This document shows positions 40,768 through 53,385 of a stretch of 64,000 bases of DNA, piece by piece. Numbering within the stretch: position 1 is the first letter of the stretch; each line of letters starts with the position of its first letter. The stretch comes from Candidatus Adlerbacteria bacterium (GTDB lineage Bacteria > Patescibacteriota > Minisyncoccia > Phycocordibacterales > SBAW01), in NCBI GenBank assembly GCA_029288895.1, contig JARIGK010000001.1, positions 134,682 to 198,681 of the forward strand, written 5' to 3'. Under the pieces are notes generated by a model. The model ran no database searches. It saw only the letters and a list, made by a program, of their open reading frames with translations, and was not told where the DNA came from. The position numbers and the translations under genes were made by a program.

Positions 40768-40862
40768 GACGGCCTTTTTCTTTGCATATACAAGAGAAAA
40801 GCGTAGGATGGCACACAGACGCGGTTACGCCGCCCGTTCTTACTCTTGTGGAGGACTATGCA

Positions 40863-41831
40863 ATGATCGTTCGTCTACTCGCTCTTGTGTGCGCGCTACT
40901 CGTTCCAGGGTTCGCGAATGCAGAGGTCTATCCGGCCAAGCCTGTGCGGCTTATCGTCGGCTTTCCGCCCGGAGGGCCAACTGATGTGCTTGCGCGAATC
41001 GTCGCCGAGAGTCTTTCGGCGAAGTTGGGTGTGCAGGTGCTTGTCGAGAACAAGCCCGGCGCTGGCACCATCCTTGCAATCAAAGAGGTGATTGCAGCGG
41101 CGCCCGACGGCTACACACTTTTGTTTGGCAGCCCGAACGTTGCCACCAACGAAACACTCTATCCAAATCGCGGGTACGAATTTCTGCAGAGTACTGAGCC
41201 TGTTGCGCTCGTTGCCCGAGGGCCAGTCGCATTGTATGTAAAGCGCGGCACTCCTGATGAGGATCGTTTCCAGACGTTGGATAGTCTTATCGGGTTCGCA
41301 AAGGCACATCCGTGGAGGCTCAACATGGCATCTCCGGGCAACGGCACAGCGAGCCATCTCATCGGCGAACTCTTCCAAATGCGGGCGGGCGTCACCATGA
41401 CGCACGTTCCGTACAAAGGCGGCAGCCAGGTGATGCCAGACTTGCTCGCAGGGAGGGTTAGCCTGACCTTTGATACGACGACGTTGGCGCTCCAGTATGT
41501 CCGTGATGGGCGTTTGCGCGCGCTTGGGGTTACAACCAAGCAACGCGTCAGCGTCTTGCCGGACACGCCCGCCATTGCCGAGGTCCTTCCTGGGTTCGAG
41601 GCAAGTAACTGGTGGGGCATTAGCGCGCCAAAAGGAACTCCAGCGTCGGTTGTCGCGCGGCTTAACAGTGCGATCAACAGTGTGCTCGGCGAACAGGAAA
41701 TGCAGAAGAAGCTCACTGAGTTGGGGCTTATCCCCGCGGGAGGCACGCCGTCTGAGTACGGCACCTTCATTGCGGCGGAGACGCTCAAGTGGGCGGACGT
41801 CATCCGCTACTCTGGAGCTACGCTCGATTAA
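40863..41831 (+). CDS. TctC/Bug-family tripartite tricarboxylate transporter substrate-binding protein (orphan)
   Basis: SD site GGAGGA upstream of the ATG at 40863. Signal peptide, PVRLIVGFPPGGPTDVLARIVAE, and the periplasmic binding fold. No tctA/tctB nearby. GC-rich codon usage. Confidence 0.7.
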   Translation: MIVRLLALVCALLVPGFANAEVYPAKPVRLIVGFPPGGPTDVLARIVAESLSAKLGVQVLVENKPGAGTILAIKEVIAAAPDGYTLLFGSPNVATNETLYPNRGYEFLQSTEPVALVARGPVALYVKRGTPDEDRFQTLDSLIGFAKAHPWRLNMASPGNGTASHLIGELFQMRAGVTMTHVPYKGGSQVMPDLLAGRVSLTFDTTTLALQYVRDGRLRALGVTTKQRVSVLPDTPAIAEVLPGFEASNWWGISAPKGTPASVVARLNSAINSVLGEQEMQKKLTELGLIPAGGTPSEYGTFIAAETLKWADVIRYSGATLD

Positions 41832-41845
41832 AAGACACACTACAA

Positions 41846-41882
41846 CGCCAGCTCCTCGCGAGCCGGCGTTTTTTCTTAGCAA
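41846..41882 (+). terminator. Intrinsic terminator
   Basis: CGCCAGCTC CTCGC GAGCCGGCG followed by TTTTTTCTT. Confidence 0.55.
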
Positions 41883-41987
41883 TTATTACGGTAATGGGCG
41901 TTTAGGAGTAGAATCTTTTTCTATTACCCGTTTGATAGTTTTCACGATGCAACATTGTATAAAAAGAAAAGCTGTCCCGGAGGACAG

Positions 41988-42359
41988 CTAGTGTAAACGA
42001 AACTGATGCTGTACAAATTTTAGCTCGGCTGGTCGGATCAACCGCGAATGCGCCACACTCACTTTGTGGAGTTTGCCATCCAAATTCTTCTCCCAGAATT
42101 CCAAAAACCCAGTAAGTTTTGGAAAGCGAGGATGAAGATCCGTGTCCTGCCAAACATAACTCTGCAGAATATGTTTATGGTCGGGCATCCAGTAGAGAAT
42201 TTCTGCTGTTGTAATTCCGAAGCCCTTAAACAGTTCTACGAAATCTTTTGAGACAGATGCAGGCATCGTATGTCCCTCGCTCGTTGCTCCCGCTATAAGT
42301 AAAGCGCCGAACCTGTTCATCGTCAAAACGATCCTGTGAACTGTGTGGCCCGTGTTCAT
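41988..42359 (-). CDS. Usg-like family protein (tentative)
   Basis: ITTAEILYWMPDHKHILQSYVWQDTDLHPRFPKLTGFLEFW...LHKVSVAHSRLI resembles the Usg-like domain. Start may be the internal ATG at 42266. Confidence 0.4.
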   Translation of the reverse strand: MNTGHTVHRIVLTMNRFGALLIAGATSEGHTMPASVSKDFVELFKGFGITTAEILYWMPDHKHILQSYVWQDTDLHPRFPKLTGFLEFWEKNLDGKLHKVSVAHSRLIRPAELKFVQHQFRLH

Positions 42360-42446: not shown

Positions 42447-42710
42447 TTAATTACCTTGGCAGTTGGTGTGCGAGTTGTTGTAGCCAGTTGCGCCAGCGTC
42501 TTGGCCAGTTGCGCCGCCGTGATATCCAGGCGTTCCGCCAGCTTGGCCGAGGAAGCCGAAATTCCCGTTAACGTCAGCGAAGGCGCCATGTGATGCTCCG
42601 CATGCAGATGCGTTTGAACCATCACCTGCGGCAAATGCAGGCATTACTGCCGCTCCGAACAAAAGTGCGCTTGCGCCCGCGCCCAACACTGCTTTCTTGA
42701 AGGTACCCAT
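42447..42710 (-). CDS. Small secreted Gly-rich protein, hypothetical
   Basis: Signal peptide (MGTFKKAVLGAGASALLFGAAVMPAFA) followed by a Gly/Ala/Asn-rich 60-aa region. Confidence 0.45.
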   Translation of the reverse strand: MGTFKKAVLGAGASALLFGAAVMPAFAAGDGSNASACGASHGAFADVNGNFGFLGQAGGTPGYHGGATGQDAGATGYNNSHTNCQGN

Positions 42711-42808
42711 AGATTGCTTAAGAAGTTAACGAATATTTTCCCAGTATACGTACCCTTCATTAATAACGTATGAAATAGAGGAGGTTGAACCTGCCTGCAT
42801 AAAAGAGA

Positions 42809-42843
42809 AATCGCCCACACGGAGCAGATTTCCGTTGGGCGAT
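42809..42843 (-). terminator. Intrinsic terminator
   Basis: ATCGCCCA(C)ACGGA GCAGATT TCCGTTGGGCGAT with a T-rich tract on the minus strand. Confidence 0.55.
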
Positions 42844-42854
42844 TGTGCAACCGA

Positions 42855-43127
42855 TTAGGTGCGCCGGATAGGCTTGATGGTCACCCCCAAGCTTTGCAGG
42901 TGCTCAACCACACCTGCATCCTTGAGGATGCGGGCGTATGCGCCAGTGATGAAGTTGATCTTCGGCTGGTGTTGGACAAGGCCACCTTTCTCCTGCAGGA
43001 CTTCGTCCAGCTCCTCGGCAAGCTTTGTAGCTGTAGCCGCCAGCTGGATCAGCTCAGTGCGCATTCCCTCCGCTTTGCCGCGGATCGAGCGTTGCATCGG
43101 ATTAGTACCGTCGTTTCGACCGTTCAC
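42855..43127 (-). CDS. Small hypothetical protein (90 aa) with a consensus promoter, SD site and terminator
   Basis: GTG start preceded by AAGGAGA 8 nt upstream. Coiled-coil-like. Confidence 0.45.
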   Translation of the reverse strand: MNGRNDGTNPMQRSIRGKAEGMRTELIQLAATATKLAEELDEVLQEKGGLVQHQPKINFITGAYARILKDAGVVEHLQSLGVTIKPIRRT

Positions 43128-43158
43128 GTAAGGTATCTCCTTAATGTTCTTACCTATA

Positions 43159-43187
43159 TATTGTAACCTAATATAAAATATTTGTCA
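43159..43187 (-). promoter_or_regulatory. Near-consensus sigma-70 promoter
   Basis: On the minus strand: TTGACA (43187-43182), 17-nt spacer, TACAAT (43164-43159). Confidence 0.5.
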
Positions 43188-43277
43188 AATTTGCCCACCT
43201 TAGTGGACGACTTTAGAACCATTGATTGGGTGAGAGAGTACCCTGCGCCTGCATTCACGCTGCGACAGGTGCAGGAG

Positions 43278-45065
43278 TTACTGAGGTAGTGTCTCCGTTG
43301 TATCGACGCTTTCTACTACAGCTGGAATTGGTTCAGGCAATTGGACACCATGCATCTTAACGCGTCGCGCATTCAATCGATTTTCTTGGCCAATTTGTAC
43401 TAAAGCTTTTGCAGCTCTCTCAGCAATGGTTTCCGTGTCATCTGCAGTCCTGTTGTTCAGACCACGAGCAGCACGAACAATGCGATGCATTCTATCGCCC
43501 TTTTCAGCCTTAAATATTCTGTAAAAATCTTCGACACTGAGCTTGCTTATTAATTCAGTATCTTCTGGATTCCAGCCATGTTTAATAATCATATCTTCTA
43601 ACACGTCAGCTGGGTTGCGGTCATCAACAAATCTGCTACGCGCTGCATCGAATGCCTGCGCAAGTTCCTCATCTCTTTCTCCATCGTCAAATAGACTTTG
43701 ACGTCCATCGAACAAATCTTTCTCGTCCCTGCGTTCTGTAACGTATTTGGTTATAAGCTCCGTTGCTTCCGTGTTTCTTCCAAACTCTTTGAGCAGCTTA
43801 ACTGTTGAGTTTAGATTGGAAGGGTGAAGGACTCCAATATTTTCCATCGACGCACTAAAAATTTTGTCCATCACTTCTTTTTCGTTATCGTCAAAAGAGC
43901 CGTGGTATGCAGTCCAAGCATCGTGTATATCCTGCTCTTGTTGGGCTTTGTTGGCCACCTTACTTTGCTTCTCAGCTGCCTTTAGGAGAGCTTCTTCATC
44001 AAAGATTCCACTCTGCACGGTCTTATGGATAGCCAAGTCAAAGTCATCAGCACTAAAAAATTTATACTTTGCCATCAACTCAGACCACTTCCTGTCCGTG
44101 TCTGGAATTTGGTTATTATTTCGCAACATACCATGCAGGCGCCCCATATCTGTTAAGAACTCGAATGGCGGCGGTTCGCCGTCCTTCTGATATTTTTCCC
44201 AACCGAATAGCGTTGCCGAGTGAAAGGCTTGGTAGAAAAGCTCTGAATAATCAGTTTGTAATATCCCTTCGAGTCGCGCGCAAATTCTCTCTATCTTTTT
44301 GAGTACTCTGATGTTGGTGATACCAAGAGTGACGCAAAAATCATGCAGCAGTTTTTTGTTACCCGTTGCATCTGCGTCAGGGAAAGCAATGTCCGCTGCT
44401 TCTTGAGGAGTCGGATCAAATTGCAGATGGGTATCAACGACCTTTTCAAGTTGTTTATGGAAAACTTCCTTTTGTCCATCCGCAATTTCTTCTTCGTTGA
44501 GCAAGAGAACAACTTTACACTTGCGTTGTTCTTTTAGCATGGATATAAGTCCGAATACTTCTATGACGTCCAATCCGTTCCCAGCTCTTTCAAGGTCGTC
44601 TATGCATATGATTTGTTCGCCCACAGAGTGAAAGAGAAGTTTTTCAGCTAGTGCAGTTCCGATGTAACTTTGGACTACGGGATTCTGACCCGCCTGCGTT
44701 AACAGCCACCGCACGGAAGAGCCGAGCGTGTCTCGTAAATTTTTCGGCTCCAAAGCTCCTAGTGTCCACTCCTCTCCGATTTTTTCAACGGGTTTTGTAG
44801 CTTCATAGATTGCGTAGCGCAAGTCGTCAATTTTCTTTACTCCAAATAACGATACATATGCGTAGCGCGTTAACTTAATCTTCCCAGCATCTTTTGCTTC
44901 TTTAAGAAAATAGTTCCAACCGTATGTTTTGCCAACGCCCCATTTGCCGCTAATACAAAGCACTTCAGGGTCGGCTCTTTCCAAAAAACGAGTTATTTCT
45001 GCTTTTACAAGTCGTATAGACACGCCCCTATTGTAGCGATAAAAGCTCATGTGAAAAGAGCTCAA
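43278..45065 (-). CDS. KAP-family P-loop NTPase (PifA-like)
   Basis: Walker A ISGKWGVGKT, KAP-type Walker B ICIDDLER, and a long alpha-helical C-terminal half; 595 aa. Confidence 0.8.
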   Translation of the reverse strand: MSSFHMSFYRYNRGVSIRLVKAEITRFLERADPEVLCISGKWGVGKTYGWNYFLKEAKDAGKIKLTRYAYVSLFGVKKIDDLRYAIYEATKPVEKIGEEWTLGALEPKNLRDTLGSSVRWLLTQAGQNPVVQSYIGTALAEKLLFHSVGEQIICIDDLERAGNGLDVIEVFGLISMLKEQRKCKVVLLLNEEEIADGQKEVFHKQLEKVVDTHLQFDPTPQEAADIAFPDADATGNKKLLHDFCVTLGITNIRVLKKIERICARLEGILQTDYSELFYQAFHSATLFGWEKYQKDGEPPPFEFLTDMGRLHGMLRNNNQIPDTDRKWSELMAKYKFFSADDFDLAIHKTVQSGIFDEEALLKAAEKQSKVANKAQQEQDIHDAWTAYHGSFDDNEKEVMDKIFSASMENIGVLHPSNLNSTVKLLKEFGRNTEATELITKYVTERRDEKDLFDGRQSLFDDGERDEELAQAFDAARSRFVDDRNPADVLEDMIIKHGWNPEDTELISKLSVEDFYRIFKAEKGDRMHRIVRAARGLNNRTADDTETIAERAAKALVQIGQENRLNARRVKMHGVQLPEPIPAVVESVDTTETLPQ

Positions 45066-45322: not shown

Positions 45323-45371
45323 CTATCTGACTCAAGTAAAGTGGCAGACGGCAGTTTTGAAGGAGACGACA

Positions 45372-45659
45372 ATGACCGTGTGGTTCCCGCGTTACTGGTG
45401 TATGGGGTGCGGAGCACGCTTCGTGTTGGAAGCCGATGCTCTTGAGACCAACCTGACTCCTGAAATCATCCTCTCAGCAATGAGTGCAGGGGAGGGTCCT
45501 TTCAAGCAGCTCAGGACGCATCATGACTGCGGCTTGCATAAAGCGCAAGAAGCAGGGAAGGCGTTGGGAGCTGGTGGGCCCGGGCTCTACTCTTCCAACT
45601 TCGAGCCTTATTGGGGCGAAGCGAAGTTCTGCGGTATGAAGAAGAAAGTTCCAACCTGA
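45372..45659 (+). CDS. Small CxxC protein, hypothetical
   Basis: SD site GGAGA upstream of the ATG at 45372. Begins MTVWFPRYWCMGCGARF. A terminator follows. Confidence 0.4.
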   Translation: MTVWFPRYWCMGCGARFVLEADALETNLTPEIILSAMSAGEGPFKQLRTHHDCGLHKAQEAGKALGAGGPGLYSSNFEPYWGEAKFCGMKKKVPT

Positions 45660-45688
45660 TGACATCCTGCGTTACGAATTTTAGAGGC

Positions 45689-45722
45689 CGCTATCCGCAA
45701 GGAGCGGCCTTTTCTTTTTTGT
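45689..45722 (+). terminator. Intrinsic terminator
   Basis: AGGCCGCT ATCCGCAAGG AGCGGCCT followed by TTTCTTTTTT. Confidence 0.5.
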
Positions 45723-45850: not shown

Positions 45851-46645
45851 TCAGACATTTTTTGATAGATAATCTTTCATGACTGCTTTAGCGGCAAAGT
45901 CAAAAGCCGAAGCTGTTATAGGAAGCTTTGCGGCTGCTTTCGCAATATTTTTCCAATCCTCAGGCAGTTCTCCATTCCCAAGTTCTTCTTGGTAAGCAAG
46001 TAGCTGAACGACAAAATCATAATGGCCAGTACTCAAGGTCATGGCAAGCATTAATGCTTTGTGAATTTCTAGCTTCGGACCATAATTGAAATGATATTTA
46101 TTTCCTTTACCGCGGTATCCGTAAAGCTGTGAACCAAATGCGCTTGCGTGAGAACTTTTGCTCAATATTCTAAATGCCTTTTTGGCAGGTTTTCCTCCGT
46201 GAGCAACAATATCTCTTTCAATCGTTCCCTCACTGAAAGCATCCTTAAAAGCTGGATTTTTCTGATAATCATCCTCTGTTTCTTTGAGAAACAAATCACG
46301 AAGTTCTGGATGTGAAAAAAGATATATCAGCATTGATAAATCACTCATTATGCTTCTTACGATCACAAACGCATCTCCGTACAACCCTCTTTCCATAAGT
46401 ATCCTTATCGTTTCAAGATGTTGAATAGACCTGTTCACCAACATAAGTTGGATCGTTTTGAATTTCGCTTCTTCGGTGCCCGGAGTCTCTTTTACTTCAT
46501 TAATCAGTAATGCGACTGCATCTTTCAGAACCCCTAGACCTTCCCAATAAATGGGATAAAGCAGACTGAGAGTCATTTTTGTGCTCTCTTTAATTTCTAG
46601 TTCCAGCGTTTCAAAGTCTCGTCTTCCTTCCACTGGTTTAGACAT
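45851..46645 (-). CDS. Hypothetical protein (third gene of the LexA-like / Y-family-polymerase operon)
   Basis: 264 aa, alpha-helical. Ends 32 bp downstream of the polymerase gene. Confidence 0.4.
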   Translation of the reverse strand: MSKPVEGRRDFETLELEIKESTKMTLSLLYPIYWEGLGVLKDAVALLINEVKETPGTEEAKFKTIQLMLVNRSIQHLETIRILMERGLYGDAFVIVRSIMSDLSMLIYLFSHPELRDLFLKETEDDYQKNPAFKDAFSEGTIERDIVAHGGKPAKKAFRILSKSSHASAFGSQLYGYRGKGNKYHFNYGPKLEIHKALMLAMTLSTGHYDFVVQLLAYQEELGNGELPEDWKNIAKAAAKLPITASAFDFAAKAVMKDYLSKNV

Positions 46646-46677: not shown

Positions 46678-47982
46678 TTATTTAACCTCACCAAGCATCG
46701 GTATTCCTATGCGTTGACGTCTATTTTCACCTTTGAATAGTTTAGATGTGCGACCTGGGGCATCGCCTCGTTCGTTTGTGTGAGCGCCCCGCTTCATGGC
46801 TTTCATAGTGGAACCTAGGTAGACAGTGTGTTTGCCGAACTTACTGTCCATTGCATCAACTGCCGCATAGACGGGCTTCCATTTAATAATCTCAGATACT
46901 GCCCCAAATAAGTCCATCTGTATTTCTTTATTGTGCTCAAGCCCCATCAATACAACGCCAGTAGCACGGTAGGGTGTGCGAGGGCGATACACCTTATCAA
47001 ACGACTCACGCACAAGGCGAATAAACTCGTTAGGTAATGATTGAGGAGTGGCAAGTGTTAATTCAAGTCCTGAATAGCGAAACTCTTGAGTCTTAAGAAA
47101 GAAGAATATCTTCTTAGGCGCAAGCTCATACCGACGCGCCTTGATACAGGCATTTTCAATATTCTTTGAGAGTTGGGAGAACACGAACTCTTTGTCAGCA
47201 GATGCAGGAGTAAATGTTTTGGTTTTACTTATGCTCTGGTAGTCGTGCTTTTCCTCAGTTGTGAGGGGGTACACAAACTCTCCACGTAGCTCGTGCCATA
47301 TCTCGCGATACGGTTTGCTCATGTTCGCGTCTATCCACTCAACGGGCTTTTGAGCGTATTGGAGAGATGTCTGAATGCCGTGTTGTTTCAAGAAAGCAGA
47401 TGTCTGTGGGCCAATGCCCCAGATTTTATCTATCGGGAGTTTGCTTAAGTACGTCTCTACTCTGTTTGCAGGGATAATAGTCAGCCCCGATGGTTTCTTC
47501 CACTTGGAACCTACCTTTGCAAGCACCTTATTTGGTGCGAGGCCGATAGAAAAGGTCATTCCAAGTTCTGTGTCCAAGTCGTGCTTTATGGCCTCTGCTA
47601 TGGCCTCATATGACATCCTGAGAGACCTGCGCATGCCTGTTAAATCAGCAAAGCATTCATCAATACTGTATTCCTCAACAGCCTCTGTATATCGCCTCAC
47701 AATGGCGTACATACGCTTAGAGAAGAGACTGTAGGTCTCGTAGTCAGAAGGGAGAATGATGACCTCGGGGCATATCTTTTTAATCTCTCGCAGAGACATG
47801 CCACGCTTCACGCCCATAGCCTTCAGCTCGTAGCTCATGGAAGATGCGATGCCGCGTTCTTTGCCAGTAACCACAGGTTTGCCTTTAAGTGCTGGGTTTA
47901 CGGCGGCTTCGCATGACGCAAAGAACGAGTCCCCATCAATATGTATTATTGCGCGGGGGAATGAGCGGATAGAGAGCGGCAT
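46678..47982 (-). CDS. Y-family DNA polymerase (UmuC/DinB-like)
   Basis: HIDGDSFFASCE (Y-family motif I), SIDECFADLTG, and little-finger region; 434 aa. Confidence 0.85.
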   Translation of the reverse strand: MPLSIRSFPRAIIHIDGDSFFASCEAAVNPALKGKPVVTGKERGIASSMSYELKAMGVKRGMSLREIKKICPEVIILPSDYETYSLFSKRMYAIVRRYTEAVEEYSIDECFADLTGMRRSLRMSYEAIAEAIKHDLDTELGMTFSIGLAPNKVLAKVGSKWKKPSGLTIIPANRVETYLSKLPIDKIWGIGPQTSAFLKQHGIQTSLQYAQKPVEWIDANMSKPYREIWHELRGEFVYPLTTEEKHDYQSISKTKTFTPASADKEFVFSQLSKNIENACIKARRYELAPKKIFFFLKTQEFRYSGLELTLATPQSLPNEFIRLVRESFDKVYRPRTPYRATGVVLMGLEHNKEIQMDLFGAVSEIIKWKPVYAAVDAMDSKFGKHTVYLGSTMKAMKRGAHTNERGDAPGRTSKLFKGENRRQRIGIPMLGEVK

Positions 47983-47983
47983 A

Positions 47984-48544
47984 TCAGTATTTACGGATTA
48001 CAGCTTGTACAACAGCTTCTATTGTGAGTTCGTTCTCAGGATAAATATCTTTGAATTTTTTATTTGCCGCTTGGAGAAATACTTTGTTTCCTTCCTTGCG
48101 GTAGTACTTCATAGTGTACTCGCCGTCTACTTGGGCAATGACAATCTGCCCTGGCTTTGGGGTTTTACCACGTTCAACCAGCACCATATCTCCCTCCATA
48201 ATTCCTGCATCAATCATTGAGTCACCTTTAACTTTGAGCATAAAAGTTGCCTCTTTATTTTTTATCAAGTATTCATCCAAGCTCATCGTGTCCACCAACT
48301 CTTCTTCAGCAGGGGAAGGGAAGCCTGCTTCTACTGTGCCAAGAAGAGAGACAGTATTTAGAAGATCGCGAGGGATGAGTTTACCTTTCTTGTCTTTGCT
48401 AACAACTCCAGAATCTATGAGTTTTTGAACTGCATATTGGGTTGCGCCCTTGCTTTTATATCCAAGCAGCAGAGACAACTCGCTGTATGAGGGCATACGA
48501 CGATGTTTTTTGTAGAAGGAAAAGAGTTTGCTTTGAGGCGTCAT
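47984..48544 (-). CDS. LexA/UmuD-like S24 peptidase with an N-terminal wHTH
   Basis: N-terminal DNA-binding domain. GDSM Ser nucleophile and a downstream Lys (MKYYRKEG). Ends 2 bp before the polymerase gene. Confidence 0.75.
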   Translation of the reverse strand: MTPQSKLFSFYKKHRRMPSYSELSLLLGYKSKGATQYAVQKLIDSGVVSKDKKGKLIPRDLLNTVSLLGTVEAGFPSPAEEELVDTMSLDEYLIKNKEATFMLKVKGDSMIDAGIMEGDMVLVERGKTPKPGQIVIAQVDGEYTMKYYRKEGNKVFLQAANKKFKDIYPENELTIEAVVQAVIRKY

Positions 48545-48601
48545 CCCCTCAGTATATTAGTACGTTCGTACTAGTGTCAAACTCAGCTTATCTTAGCGTT
48601 T

Positions 48602-49606
48602 TTACCAGAACTTGAGCCAATTAAAGATGCTTTGCCATATAGGTCTTTTTGGAAATCCAGGTATTGTCGTTGTGGTAGAATTTTTAACCGCCGACACTGC
48701 TGAGGTACTGACAGAGCTAGATGCAGATTTCTTTATGGAACCAGCTGAAAAATCTTTTAATTGTGAAGGCGCTTTAATCGTTGGCGGCGGTGTTGAGACG
48801 GGTAAAGTCACTGATTGGGAACCTTCCTCGACACAGGTCGTTTGATCTGCGTTGAGTTCGTACCCTTCAGCGCAACTACATAGATTCTGGCCCGCAACAA
48901 TCCCATGCGGACCTAGCTTTTGATTACAAAGTTCGATGGGGTCTGGGCCGGAAGGAACACAGGATGTCTTGCTGGAGTCCATCTTATAACCCTGATCGCA
49001 GTAGCAGCCAGCCCCTGTATTGGTGGAATTTGGTGGACATGAGGATGTGGGCACAGGTTGTGTGACAGCTTTTATCTGCGAGGAATATTGTTTATAAAAA
49101 TTTGCTTGTTGTTGGAGAAATTCCGTATCTCCTAAGGCATAGCATTCTGTGTACGCTTGGTTAGAAGCAACTCTGTAGTTGCCAAGGGCGATTTGCATAA
49201 TACTTGAAAGCTTTAAAGCATCAATTGCTTTTTGACGGTCGCAAAAAGATTGAGTATCTCCTTGGCAGGGAACGTAATAAGAAGCAATAACCGCATCTGC
49301 TGCATCTCGAGCTTTATTTGCCAAGCTATCGAGATTATATTTTGCATTTATAGATTGAAATTCGCTGGCAGTGCAAAGATGCAGCGAGTCGGTACATTCG
49401 TTGGTACTCCAATACGAAACAGTGCTATCAGCCCAGCCATCATTACAAATTACGCTTCCATCCCAATCTGATCCCGCCCTACAATTCACTCCGCCGTGGT
49501 AAGAGCAGGCTCCAGAAGTTGCGAAGGTATGATTTGAAAAACTTAAAAAAAAGAGTGCCAGAAATAGTCCCGTAAAGACTGCTTTTCTCATTCTGCAATA
49601 GTGCAT
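48602..49606 (-). CDS. Secreted cysteine-rich protein (EGF-like Cys spacing), hypothetical
   Basis: Signal peptide. More than 20 Cys in repeated CxxxC / CxC contexts, with a C-terminal S/T-rich tail. Confidence 0.45.
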   Translation of the reverse strand: MHYCRMRKAVFTGLFLALFFLSFSNHTFATSGACSYHGGVNCRAGSDWDGSVICNDGWADSTVSYWSTNECTDSLHLCTASEFQSINAKYNLDSLANKARDAADAVIASYYVPCQGDTQSFCDRQKAIDALKLSSIMQIALGNYRVASNQAYTECYALGDTEFLQQQANFYKQYSSQIKAVTQPVPTSSCPPNSTNTGAGCYCDQGYKMDSSKTSCVPSGPDPIELCNQKLGPHGIVAGQNLCSCAEGYELNADQTTCVEEGSQSVTLPVSTPPPTIKAPSQLKDFSAGSIKKSASSSVSTSAVSAVKNSTTTTIPGFPKRPIWQSIFNWLKFW

Positions 49607-51737: not shown

Positions 51738-53352
51738 ATGGAAGGTGCCAAGAAATACATTTTGTACGCTCGTAAAAGCTCCGAGTCTGAAGATAGACAA
51801 ATGGCCTCGATTGATTCTCAGGTACAAGAGCTTCAAAAACTCGCTGCAGAGCTTCGTTTAGAGGTCGTAGACGTGCTTTCGGAGTCTCAGTCTGCCAAAG
51901 CTCCGGGCAGGCCTGTTTTTAATACCCTGCTCGCTCGGATTCAGGCTGGAGAGGCCGATGGCATCCTTTGTTGGAAGATTAATCGTCTGGCTCGTAACCC
52001 GATAGATGGCGGACAGATAAGCTGGTTGCTCCAGGGCGGAACGCTGAAGCATATACAGACCTTTGGTCGAGGCTATTACTCCACCGACAATGTCATCATG
52101 ATGGCGGTGGAGCTTGGTATGGCGAACCAGTTTATCCGTGACCTAAGTACTGACACAAAGCGTGGATTGAAAGCCAAGGCAGAGCGCGGCTGGTATCCAA
52201 CTTTTGCTTCCATCGGGTATATGCACAATCCTTATAAACACAAAGGGCAAAAAGAAATAATCGAGGATCCAGAACGTTTTGATTTGGTGCGGAAGATGTT
52301 CGACTTTATGCTCACGGGCAACTACACTCCGCCCAAGATTTTAGAGCTGGCCAACGATCAGTGGGGTCTTCGAACTCGCCAGGGCAATAAAATAGCTCGA
52401 AGTAATATCTACCGTATTTTTTCTGATCCCTTCTACTACGGCGAATTTGAGTACCCCAAAGGCAGCGGTAACTGGCACAAAGGACAGCACAAAGCGATGA
52501 TAACAAGGCAGGAGTTCGACCGAATCCAGTTTTTTGATTGGACGCAAGGATTCAATACGACCCAAGACCTATGAATTTGATTTCAGAGGACCAATCCACT
52601 GTGGTGAGTGCGGAGCAATGATCACCGCAGAACATAAACTCAAGCGCCAGAAGAATGGGCTGGTTCGAAGCTATATTTATTACCACTGCACAAAACGCAA
52701 ACAGATTGCCTGCTCCCAGCCGTCAATCGAAGAAAAAGAGCTAAATCGGCAGATATCTGAAATCGTTGGAAGATTGGAAATACCCGAATCGTTTTATAAG
52801 TGGGCCATGGACATCCTTAGAGAACAAAACGCAGTGGAGTCCAAGGGCAGAGAGCAGATCGTCGCCCGACAAAGAAAAGAATACGATTTAGTAATGGAGA
52901 AAATAGATCGACTGATCGATCTGAGGTCTGCAGGGGAAATCACGGCAGATGAGTTTGCGGACAGGAAGCGCTTTTTAAACGGTGAAAAAAGCGCTCTGGA
53001 GGCTCTCTTGGCCACGACAGCCGCCGGGGTCAGTGAGTGGCTAGACACCGTCGATAAGTATTTTTCATTTGCTGAAAGTGCCAAGCGCGCGTTCGATCAC
53101 GGCACTCTGGAGATAAAACGGGAGATTTTAGGGGCTCTTGGTTCGAACCTTCTTTTGAAAGATAGGAAATTGAGCGTCAGTCTCGCTAAACCTCTGACTC
53201 TTATCGAAACGGTAGCTTCTGAAGCTCGCACTATTAGCCAAATGTTCGAACCTCTAGACACCGTTGTTAAACAACGTGATATCAGACAAATCTACTCTGA
53301 AAATCCTAACTTGCTCCGCGACCAGGACTCGAACCTGGAACCAACTCCTTAA
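51738..53352 (+). pseudogene. Large serine recombinase (integrase), disrupted by a +1/-1 frameshift in a T6 run
   Basis: ORF1 (51738-52574) is the resolvase catalytic domain (YARKSSESEDRQ) plus recombinase domain. ORF2 (52534-53352) is the zinc ribbon (CGECGAM...C) plus coiled-coil. Deleting one T at 52530-52535 fuses them. The 3' end overlaps tRNA-Asn by 39 nt. Confidence 0.8.
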
Positions 53353-53385
53353 CAGGGAGCTGCTCTACCATTGAGCTATCGCGGA
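53314..53385 (-). tRNA. tRNA-Asn (anticodon GTT)
   Basis: Cloverleaf folded by hand: 7-bp acceptor stem UCCGCGA/UCGCGGA, D-arm GCUC/GAGC, anticodon loop CUGUUAA, variable loop UGGUU, T-arm CCAGG-UUCGAGU-CCUGG, discriminator G. CCA is not encoded. Confidence 0.85.

Follow-up and report, generated by a model that had tools for sequence, protein, structure and literature searches.

Single genes encoding KAP-type P-loop NTPases have recently been recognised as a kind of anti-phage defence. EF_KAP and three metagenomic KAP proteins, each encoded by a single open reading frame (ORF) and ending in an uncharacterised C-terminal region, protect against phages; this protection depends on the Walker B motif and on the C-terminal region, and at high multiplicity of infection it is not abortive (PMC13552941, PLoS Biol 2026). 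Reve is another single-gene KAP-domain system (PMC13586616, NAR 2026). The outputs of such NTPases vary, PifA acting through membrane depolarisation and Tmn through ATP turnover and plasmolysis, and PifA is devoid of transmembrane helices (PMC13001434). PDC systems, such as PDC-S49, are candidates without experimental test that were derived by guilt-by-embedding (bioRxiv 10.1101/2024.01.29.577857), while the cos-proximal gpA-gpQ hotspot of phage P2 is home to old, tin and numerous validated defences (PMC9122126). Here, we analysed a 64,000-nucleotide stretch of the genome of a Candidatus Adlerbacteria bacterium (contig JARIGK010000001.1, positions 134,682 to 198,681; hereafter, the window), in which a gene for a KAP-superfamily NTPase is followed, on the same strand, by a small gene for a 90-aa protein. 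A preliminary description of this locus had proposed that the two belong together, as a PifA-like NTPase and an abundant small inhibitor or antitoxin. The features on which the comparison depends are the following (window coordinates):

43278..45065, minus strand, solitary KAP-superfamily P-loop NTPase gene; longest ORF 595 aa, TTG start
44925..44948, minus strand, Walker A motif GKWGVGKT, residues 40-47; G40, G43, G45, K46 and T47 invariant in 25 relatives
44586..44609, minus strand, Walker B motif ICIDDLER, residues 153-160; C154, D156, D157, E159 and R160 invariant in 25 relatives
43278..44420, minus strand, C-terminal all-helical region of the NTPase, approximately residues 215-595; conserved throughout the family
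42855..43127, minus strand, 90-aa gene; GTG start, 150 nt downstream of the NTPase gene
43160..43188, minus strand, near-consensus sigma-70 promoter of the 90-aa gene, TTGACA-17-TACAAT; 11/12 positions match, and the upstream sequence is conserved with that of its nearest relative (locus L086)
43136..43142, minus strand, Shine-Dalgarno sequence AAGGAGA, 8 nt before the GTG
42801..42844, minus strand, intrinsic terminator following the 90-aa gene; stem of 14 bp interrupted by one bulge, then UUUCUCUUUU (U-run)

Our favoured interpretation, to which we assign a probability of about 70%, is that the NTPase gene and the 90-aa gene are two unrelated transcription units lying side by side, the former being solitary, mobile cargo of the defence type and the latter an independent cassette. 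One line of evidence for this interpretation is the lack of co-occurrence. In a tblastn survey of 165 NTPase loci, including 5-6 kb of flanking sequence, for which the query was first the 90-aa protein and then a set of 38 family members, we did not find a member of the 90-aa family at any locus (0/165). Likewise, none of the eight other independent contexts of the 90-aa family contained the NTPase (0/8). The preliminary description had suggested looking for a conserved small neighbour beside KAP homologues and had taken its absence as decisive; since the 90-aa family occurs in none of the 165 loci, the proposal that this gene is a partner, inhibitor or antitoxin of the NTPase fails on the terms that were set for it. 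The result extends to neighbours of any kind. When all ORFs within 3.5 kb of the NTPase gene were clustered for 80 genome loci, no family was present in more than five loci, and, phage backbone genes aside, neither these 80 genome loci nor 79 viral loci revealed a conserved neighbour. The NTPase family is a single-gene family with no obligatory partner.

The expression signals point in the same direction. A shared operon with coupled expression was not what we observed, as a 150-nt spacer separates the two genes and the 90-aa gene is served by an 11/12 promoter and a terminator of its own (-25.3 kcal/mol for a 71-nt segment, z = -2.96). The window contains five promoter sites matching at least 11 of 12 positions, compared to 0.52 +/- 0.70 in Markov simulations, and such sites are therefore real features of this genome. 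Promoter, Shine-Dalgarno sequence and terminator had all been recognised in the preliminary description and were recovered here (the stem comprising 14 bp with one bulge); the statement that these signals are far stronger than those of the neighbouring genes, in contrast, holds only in part. A promoter of this quality is not unique to the 90-aa gene, given that the umuD-like operon of the adjacent island is likewise preceded by one with an 11/12 match, at 48580(-). The nearest relative of the 90-aa protein (L086, 54% identity) shares the upstream sequence TTTGACAAATA.T.TATAT and also possesses an 11/12 promoter, a GGAGG and a strong terminator; its gene is on its own there, flanked by a DUF5671 gene and ychF, with leuS and cysS beside them. 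A further relative (L170) is preceded by a 12/12 promoter with an extended -10 element and followed by a terminator. The promoter-ORF-terminator arrangement is hence kept in three loci, two of which are away from any NTPase, and because it recurs there, the strong expression signals are a property of the 90-aa cassette itself. The 90-aa gene is a self-contained cassette comprising promoter, Shine-Dalgarno sequence, ORF and terminator.

Base composition separates the two genes as well. The 90-aa gene has a GC content at third codon positions (GC3) of 0.69, within the 0.55-0.82 seen for backbone genes, as opposed to 0.41 for the NTPase gene and 0.33-0.53 for most genes of the low-GC island that extends over approximately 43.2-53.4 kb of the window. 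The composition of the NTPase gene is foreign and that of the 90-aa gene host-like. Since the GC3 of the 90-aa gene matches the backbone while that of the NTPase gene does not, we place the former outside the island, whose edge most likely falls within the 150-nt spacer.

The predicted NTPase was described correctly in its main features, as the 595-aa ORF is present and so are both Walker motifs, with key residues that do not vary among 25 relatives. In the public annotation the gene is shorter (590 aa, ATG at 45050), and homologues as well as tblastx similarity align only from V15 (GTG at 45023), so that the true start is likely one of these two codons. Against Pfam PF07693 (KAP_NTPase) the protein scores 27.2 bits (cut-off 20), with residues 31-211 aligned to profile positions 18-212 of 293, and a precomputed PF07693 match exists for around half of its relatives. 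The KAP-type motifs (Walker A GxxGxGK[ST]; Walker B of the hhhhDD[LF]DR type) are invariant in the family. The NTPase is accordingly a member of the KAP P-loop superfamily, although it passes the Pfam threshold weakly. A sequence search did not find relatives of solved structure for the protein, and none was detectable for its C-terminal region. In its AlphaFold2 model (mean predicted local distance difference test score, pLDDT, 91.4), the N-terminal part adopts a switch-type AAA+/STAND-like fold: two fold searches returned matches to the generic AAA+ core only (approximately 170-236 residues, 9-17% identity), the best of which were replication initiators (ORC/Cdc6) together with TnsC and MuB, which select targets for transposition. 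No transmembrane segment was detected (highest 19-residue Kyte-Doolittle mean 0.97).

How this gene travels is apparent from its distribution. We detected 1725 relatives, nearly all of which are 550-590 aa long and collinear along the full length. The family is present in at least 544 species-representative genomes from many phyla, among them Patescibacteria, Acidobacteriota, Alpha- and Gammaproteobacteria, Cyanobacteria, Myxococcota and Bacteroidota. Relatives also occur in 148 plasmid records, in temperate phages of Burkholderia and in 83 IMG/VR contigs. Of 79 viral loci, 41-44 (or 17-20 of 48 groups after dereplication) have the gene between the P2 replication endonuclease gene, gpA, and the portal/terminase genes. 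Family members thus occupy the described gpA-gpQ hotspot of P2-like prophages (L093-L168 and Escherichia coli AF5); the AF5 relative (L176, NZ_OZ547033.1 4264925-4268601) adjoins a LA2681-family HEPN protein there. The copy in the window is located in a tRNA-Asn island and not in a P2 prophage. Its closest relative (L084, 63% identity) has a large serine recombinase at a distance of 1.7 kb and is also flanked by an SDH-type protease, and across the three closest relatives (63%, 58% and 56% identity) the NTPase ORF is the only thing in common with the window, the contexts being otherwise quite different. Outside prophages the flanks of the 80 genome loci are heterogeneous: integrases appear four times, methyltransferase or mad genes are few, and housekeeping genes are numerous. 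The NTPase gene therefore moves alone. We consider it mobile and of the defence type because it is found on plasmids, in prophages and islands, in the P2 gpA-gpQ hotspot and near large serine recombinases.

Compared with catalogued defence systems, the NTPase is closest to PDC-S49, its sole family match in PADLOC (E 2.6e-28, model positions 29-393 of 624). PDC-S49 was also the sole PADLOC match of all 25 relatives tested, with the same pattern of partial coverage. Each is a single gene, approximately 560-620 aa in length, with an N-terminal P-loop domain. As the scores are modest (66-102 bits), the sequences suggest that the NTPase family is probably a sister family of PDC-S49 rather than a member. 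The resemblance to EF_KAP-type defences and Reve is one of architecture, in that a KAP-type NTPase domain is followed by an uncharacterised region of around 320-350 aa. EF_KAP-type defences and the NTPase family are, moreover, both single genes on mobile elements near serine recombinases, albeit that the recombinases near the NTPase family (L084 and the island of the window) are large ones, whereas those near EF_KAP-type genes are small.

PifA shares with the NTPase the KAP_NTPase Pfam superfamily, the Walker A and B motifs, the lack of transmembrane helices and the carriage on mobile elements. PifA scores 148.5 bits against PF07693 (27.2 bits for the NTPase) and is 741 aa long (approximately 580 aa for the NTPase); BLASTP aligned only the Walker A and B stretches of the NTPase with F-plasmid PifA (E 0.029), hhalign gave a probability of 42.8%, and at E<=0.1 the NTPase did not match the PifA model of PADLOC, against which PifA reaches 963 bits. 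On the F plasmid pifA follows pifC, whereas tblastn with PifC against the 64-kb window returned chance matches only (E>=1.6). An alignment confined to the P-loop motifs, no match to the PADLOC PifA model and no PifC in the window rule out that the NTPase is PifA or its orthologue, and the family assignment in the preliminary description can be retained for KAP but not for PifA. The AAA+ initiator-clade and STAND NTPases (ORC/Cdc6, TnsC, MuB, CED-4, plant NLR) are distant, at only 9-17% identity, and, unlike them, the NTPase is devoid of winged-helix, TPR and LRR domains and of any recognisable effector domain, its C-terminal region remaining without a match.

A defence role of the NTPase is plausible by analogy with the tested single-ORF KAP NTPases. 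We infer that the protein, a single-gene, horizontally mobile cargo that combines an N-terminal KAP/AAA+-like P-loop switch domain with a family-specific helical region of around 350 aa, acts alone against phages. The helical region would sense or act on a phage component, as the recognition and/or the effector part, and would be driven or gated by the NTPase; blocking infection would require that nucleotide be bound and hydrolysed, probably with oligomerisation.

Several observations weigh against the interpretation of two unrelated units with a defensive NTPase. The larger genes flanking the NTPase in the 80 genome loci are mostly ordinary, the four integrases and a handful of defence genes being the exceptions, and these flanks give no evidence of defence-island enrichment outside P2-like prophages. 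The C-terminal third of PDC-S49, beyond model positions 29-393 of 624, is not common to the NTPase, and judged from sequence the defence role of this exact family, as well as that of PDC-S49, is that of a candidate. EF_KAP has two transmembrane helices and the NTPase has none, although the example of PifA means that this lack is not decisive for KAP membership. As for the separation of the two genes, the stretch from the stop codon of the NTPase gene to the promoter of the 90-aa gene showed no terminator, so that read-through transcription from the former into the latter is possible, and a lineage-specific functional pairing in this one genome would be compatible with the comparative data.

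Among the alternatives, the one that fares best assigns the function at this locus to the 90-aa gene, as a moron-type or domesticated phage early gene (a regulator, nucleic-acid binder or superinfection-exclusion factor) that would be expressed constitutively from the chromosome of the host and lie beside the island only by chance. A word-indexed search had found only the protein itself, as if it were an ORFan, which was overturned by an exhaustive HMMER search that identified 52 relatives. The family, still unnamed and of some interest by itself, consists of proteins of 80-110 aa with the motif GG..QPQ..FLTGAxARxxKDxGVxEHLQ and a basic tail. Five of its eight other contexts are early-gene arrays of temperate phages. 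In one of them the relative adjoins Cro/CI-like genes, DUF968 and an integrase; in another it precedes a ParB-like DUF6551 gene on a contig that also carries a tail-fibre peptidase; in a third it is foremost among the genes that diverge from a CI-like HTH repressor, on a contig with terminase, muramidase and integrase genes; the two others are arrays of small overlapping ORFs. On the temperate-phage contigs L174 (3042-3819) and L175 (410-1187), the homologue heads the genes that are transcribed away from a CI-like HTH_31 repressor, and this slot is the usual place of Cro-type regulators. Besides these contexts and the cassette conserved in three loci, the basic character of the protein (isoelectric point 9.6) and a weak similarity in fold to the coiled coil with which Uup binds DNA (E 0.87) argue for such a role. 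On the other hand, Pfam and PHROGs gave no reproducible match, Foldseek against the PDB returned generic coiled-coil matches only (E>0.7), and the function is read entirely from position. A scan of viral contigs gave no confirmed match to the family, and a metagenome scan yielded only three loci. The AlphaFold2 model (pLDDT 92.7) predicts a two-helix hairpin (helices 10-47 and 54-79), and with low confidence we picture the protein as an abundant dimerising helical hairpin of phage origin that may bind nucleic acids or be regulatory. Overall, we hold this alternative to be a serious one that falls somewhat short of even odds. It is compatible with the favoured interpretation and not opposed to it: the family is mainly a temperate-phage early gene, and the copy in the window probably belongs to the host backbone, as a gene that was domesticated or is of the moron type. 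A broader variant, in which the family represents an undescribed class of abundant basic helical hairpins common to bacterial chromosomes and the early regions of temperate phages, the slot opposite the CI-like repressor included, the chromosomal form having become fixed as a constitutive single-gene cassette, with a consensus promoter and a terminator, for a domesticated regulator or superinfection-exclusion factor that conceivably modulates the adjacent NTPase, strikes us as quite improbable.

Alternatively, the NTPase might not be an immune protein at all but serve the mobile elements that carry it, in their maintenance, the exclusion of competing elements or DNA transactions, in line with its ORC/Cdc6-, TnsC- and MuB-like fold. 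That replication initiators, TnsC and MuB are its best structural matches, that plasmids, prophages and islands carry the gene and that its heterogeneous flanks include few recognised defence genes would all suit this view. Yet the structural matches span only the generic NTPase core, the gene does not keep to one place with respect to genes for replication or transposition, and the position in which it does recur is the accessory gpA-gpQ hotspot that holds old, tin and other exclusion genes. We regard this alternative as unlikely.

Finally, a two-gene defence, abortive-infection or toxin-antitoxin-like module, in which an abundant 90-aa protein restrains the NTPase until infection, is very improbable, because adjacency on one strand, a strong constitutive promoter and the missing terminator after the NTPase gene are outweighed by the absence of co-occurrence in either direction, the promoter and terminator that accompany the 90-aa gene elsewhere, the GC3 difference, and an NTPase family that matches the single-gene candidate PDC-S49 and has no conserved neighbour. 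What can be kept of the defence module first proposed is the NTPase as a credible candidate anti-phage gene, owing to its PDC-S49 match and to its relatives in the P2 hotspot, on plasmids and in islands.

The surroundings of the two genes were also inspected. At the far end of the island, a tRNA-Asn gene (53313-53385 (-)) lies next to a large serine recombinase gene (51738-53352 (+)), the 3' end of which overlaps the 3' part of the tRNA gene. The recombinase is split into two overlapping ORFs, carrying Resolvase and Recombinase domains and a Zn_ribbon_recom domain, respectively, which reflects either a frameshift pseudogene or an assembly error. The NTPase had been reported to sit against an island repeat, termed repeat A, but repeat searches and local alignment gave chance-level matches only between the NTPase end and the tRNA end of the island. 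A search for an att-type repeat or a displaced tRNA fragment at the left end likewise gave chance matches only, and for this reason the left boundary is drawn by composition alone. The sole recurrent motif near the NTPase is GCGGCCTTTTYCTTTT, the 3' arm of a genome-wide terminator, of which the window contains seven copies (0.13 expected); as the motif is found after gene ends, it looks like a recurrent intrinsic terminator. These copies, together with an ORF that follows the 90-aa gene, are located as follows:

45688-45722, GCGGCCTTTTYCTTTT, 3' arm and T-run of a hairpin with a GGCCGC stem
5680, 26716, 32456, 40769, 55493 and 57901, further copies of GCGGCCTTTTYCTTTT
42447-42710, minus strand, Gly-rich 87-aa ORF with a hydrophobic N-terminus (highest 19-residue Kyte-Doolittle mean 1.82) and a Gly-rich body

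The 87-aa ORF had been noted as a secreted protein, in agreement with its hydrophobic N-terminus. The peptide is rich in Gly, Ala and Asn, has two Cys residues and its own terminator, and may be a bacteriocin-like or surface peptide; its exact sequence was not present in a collection of 15 billion proteins. To the left of these small genes, positions 40782-42359 encode a TctC-family tricarboxylate-binding protein and a Usg-like protein, the latter with a low GC value of 0.46.

On the other side, a 100-aa ORF with CxxC and HHDC motifs (45357-45659 (+)) is divergent from the NTPase gene. Despite its location in the low-GC island, it has a host-like GC3 (0.63) and a host-type terminator, and with host-like small genes on both sides of the NTPase, the island may be composite. 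Approximately 800 bp upstream of the NTPase gene and on the same strand lies a gene for a DUF5677 protein (45851-46645 (-)). Neither this gene nor the divergent 100-aa ORF had counterparts in the first 83 loci searched, nearly all of them NTPase loci. Further into the island, an S24 LexA/UmuD-like gene and a Y-family polymerase gene (IMS domains) form one operon (46678-48580 (-)), the umuD-like operon mentioned above, which is a mobile umuDC-like mutagenesis module. The island also contains a gene (48602-49606 (-)) for a secreted, Cys-rich protein of 334 aa with weak cEGF-like matches, which is unusual for a bacterial mobile element.

Taken together, the locus appears largely explained, and on the comparative sequence data the two-gene interpretation appears refuted. 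The NTPase is neither a PifA orthologue nor half of a two-gene module, and what is new is another family, probably sister to PDC-S49, within a known kind. The locus also illustrates that strong expression signals on a small neighbouring gene are not evidence of partnership, as they belong here to an autonomous cassette that recurs without the NTPase. If the proposed defence role holds, a large cross-phylum family of soluble proteins of around 560 aa, present in at least 544 species as well as on plasmids and in P2-like prophages, would join the single-gene KAP NTPase defences, with the E. coli P2-hotspot copy WP_001518830.1 as a convenient and easily testable representative.

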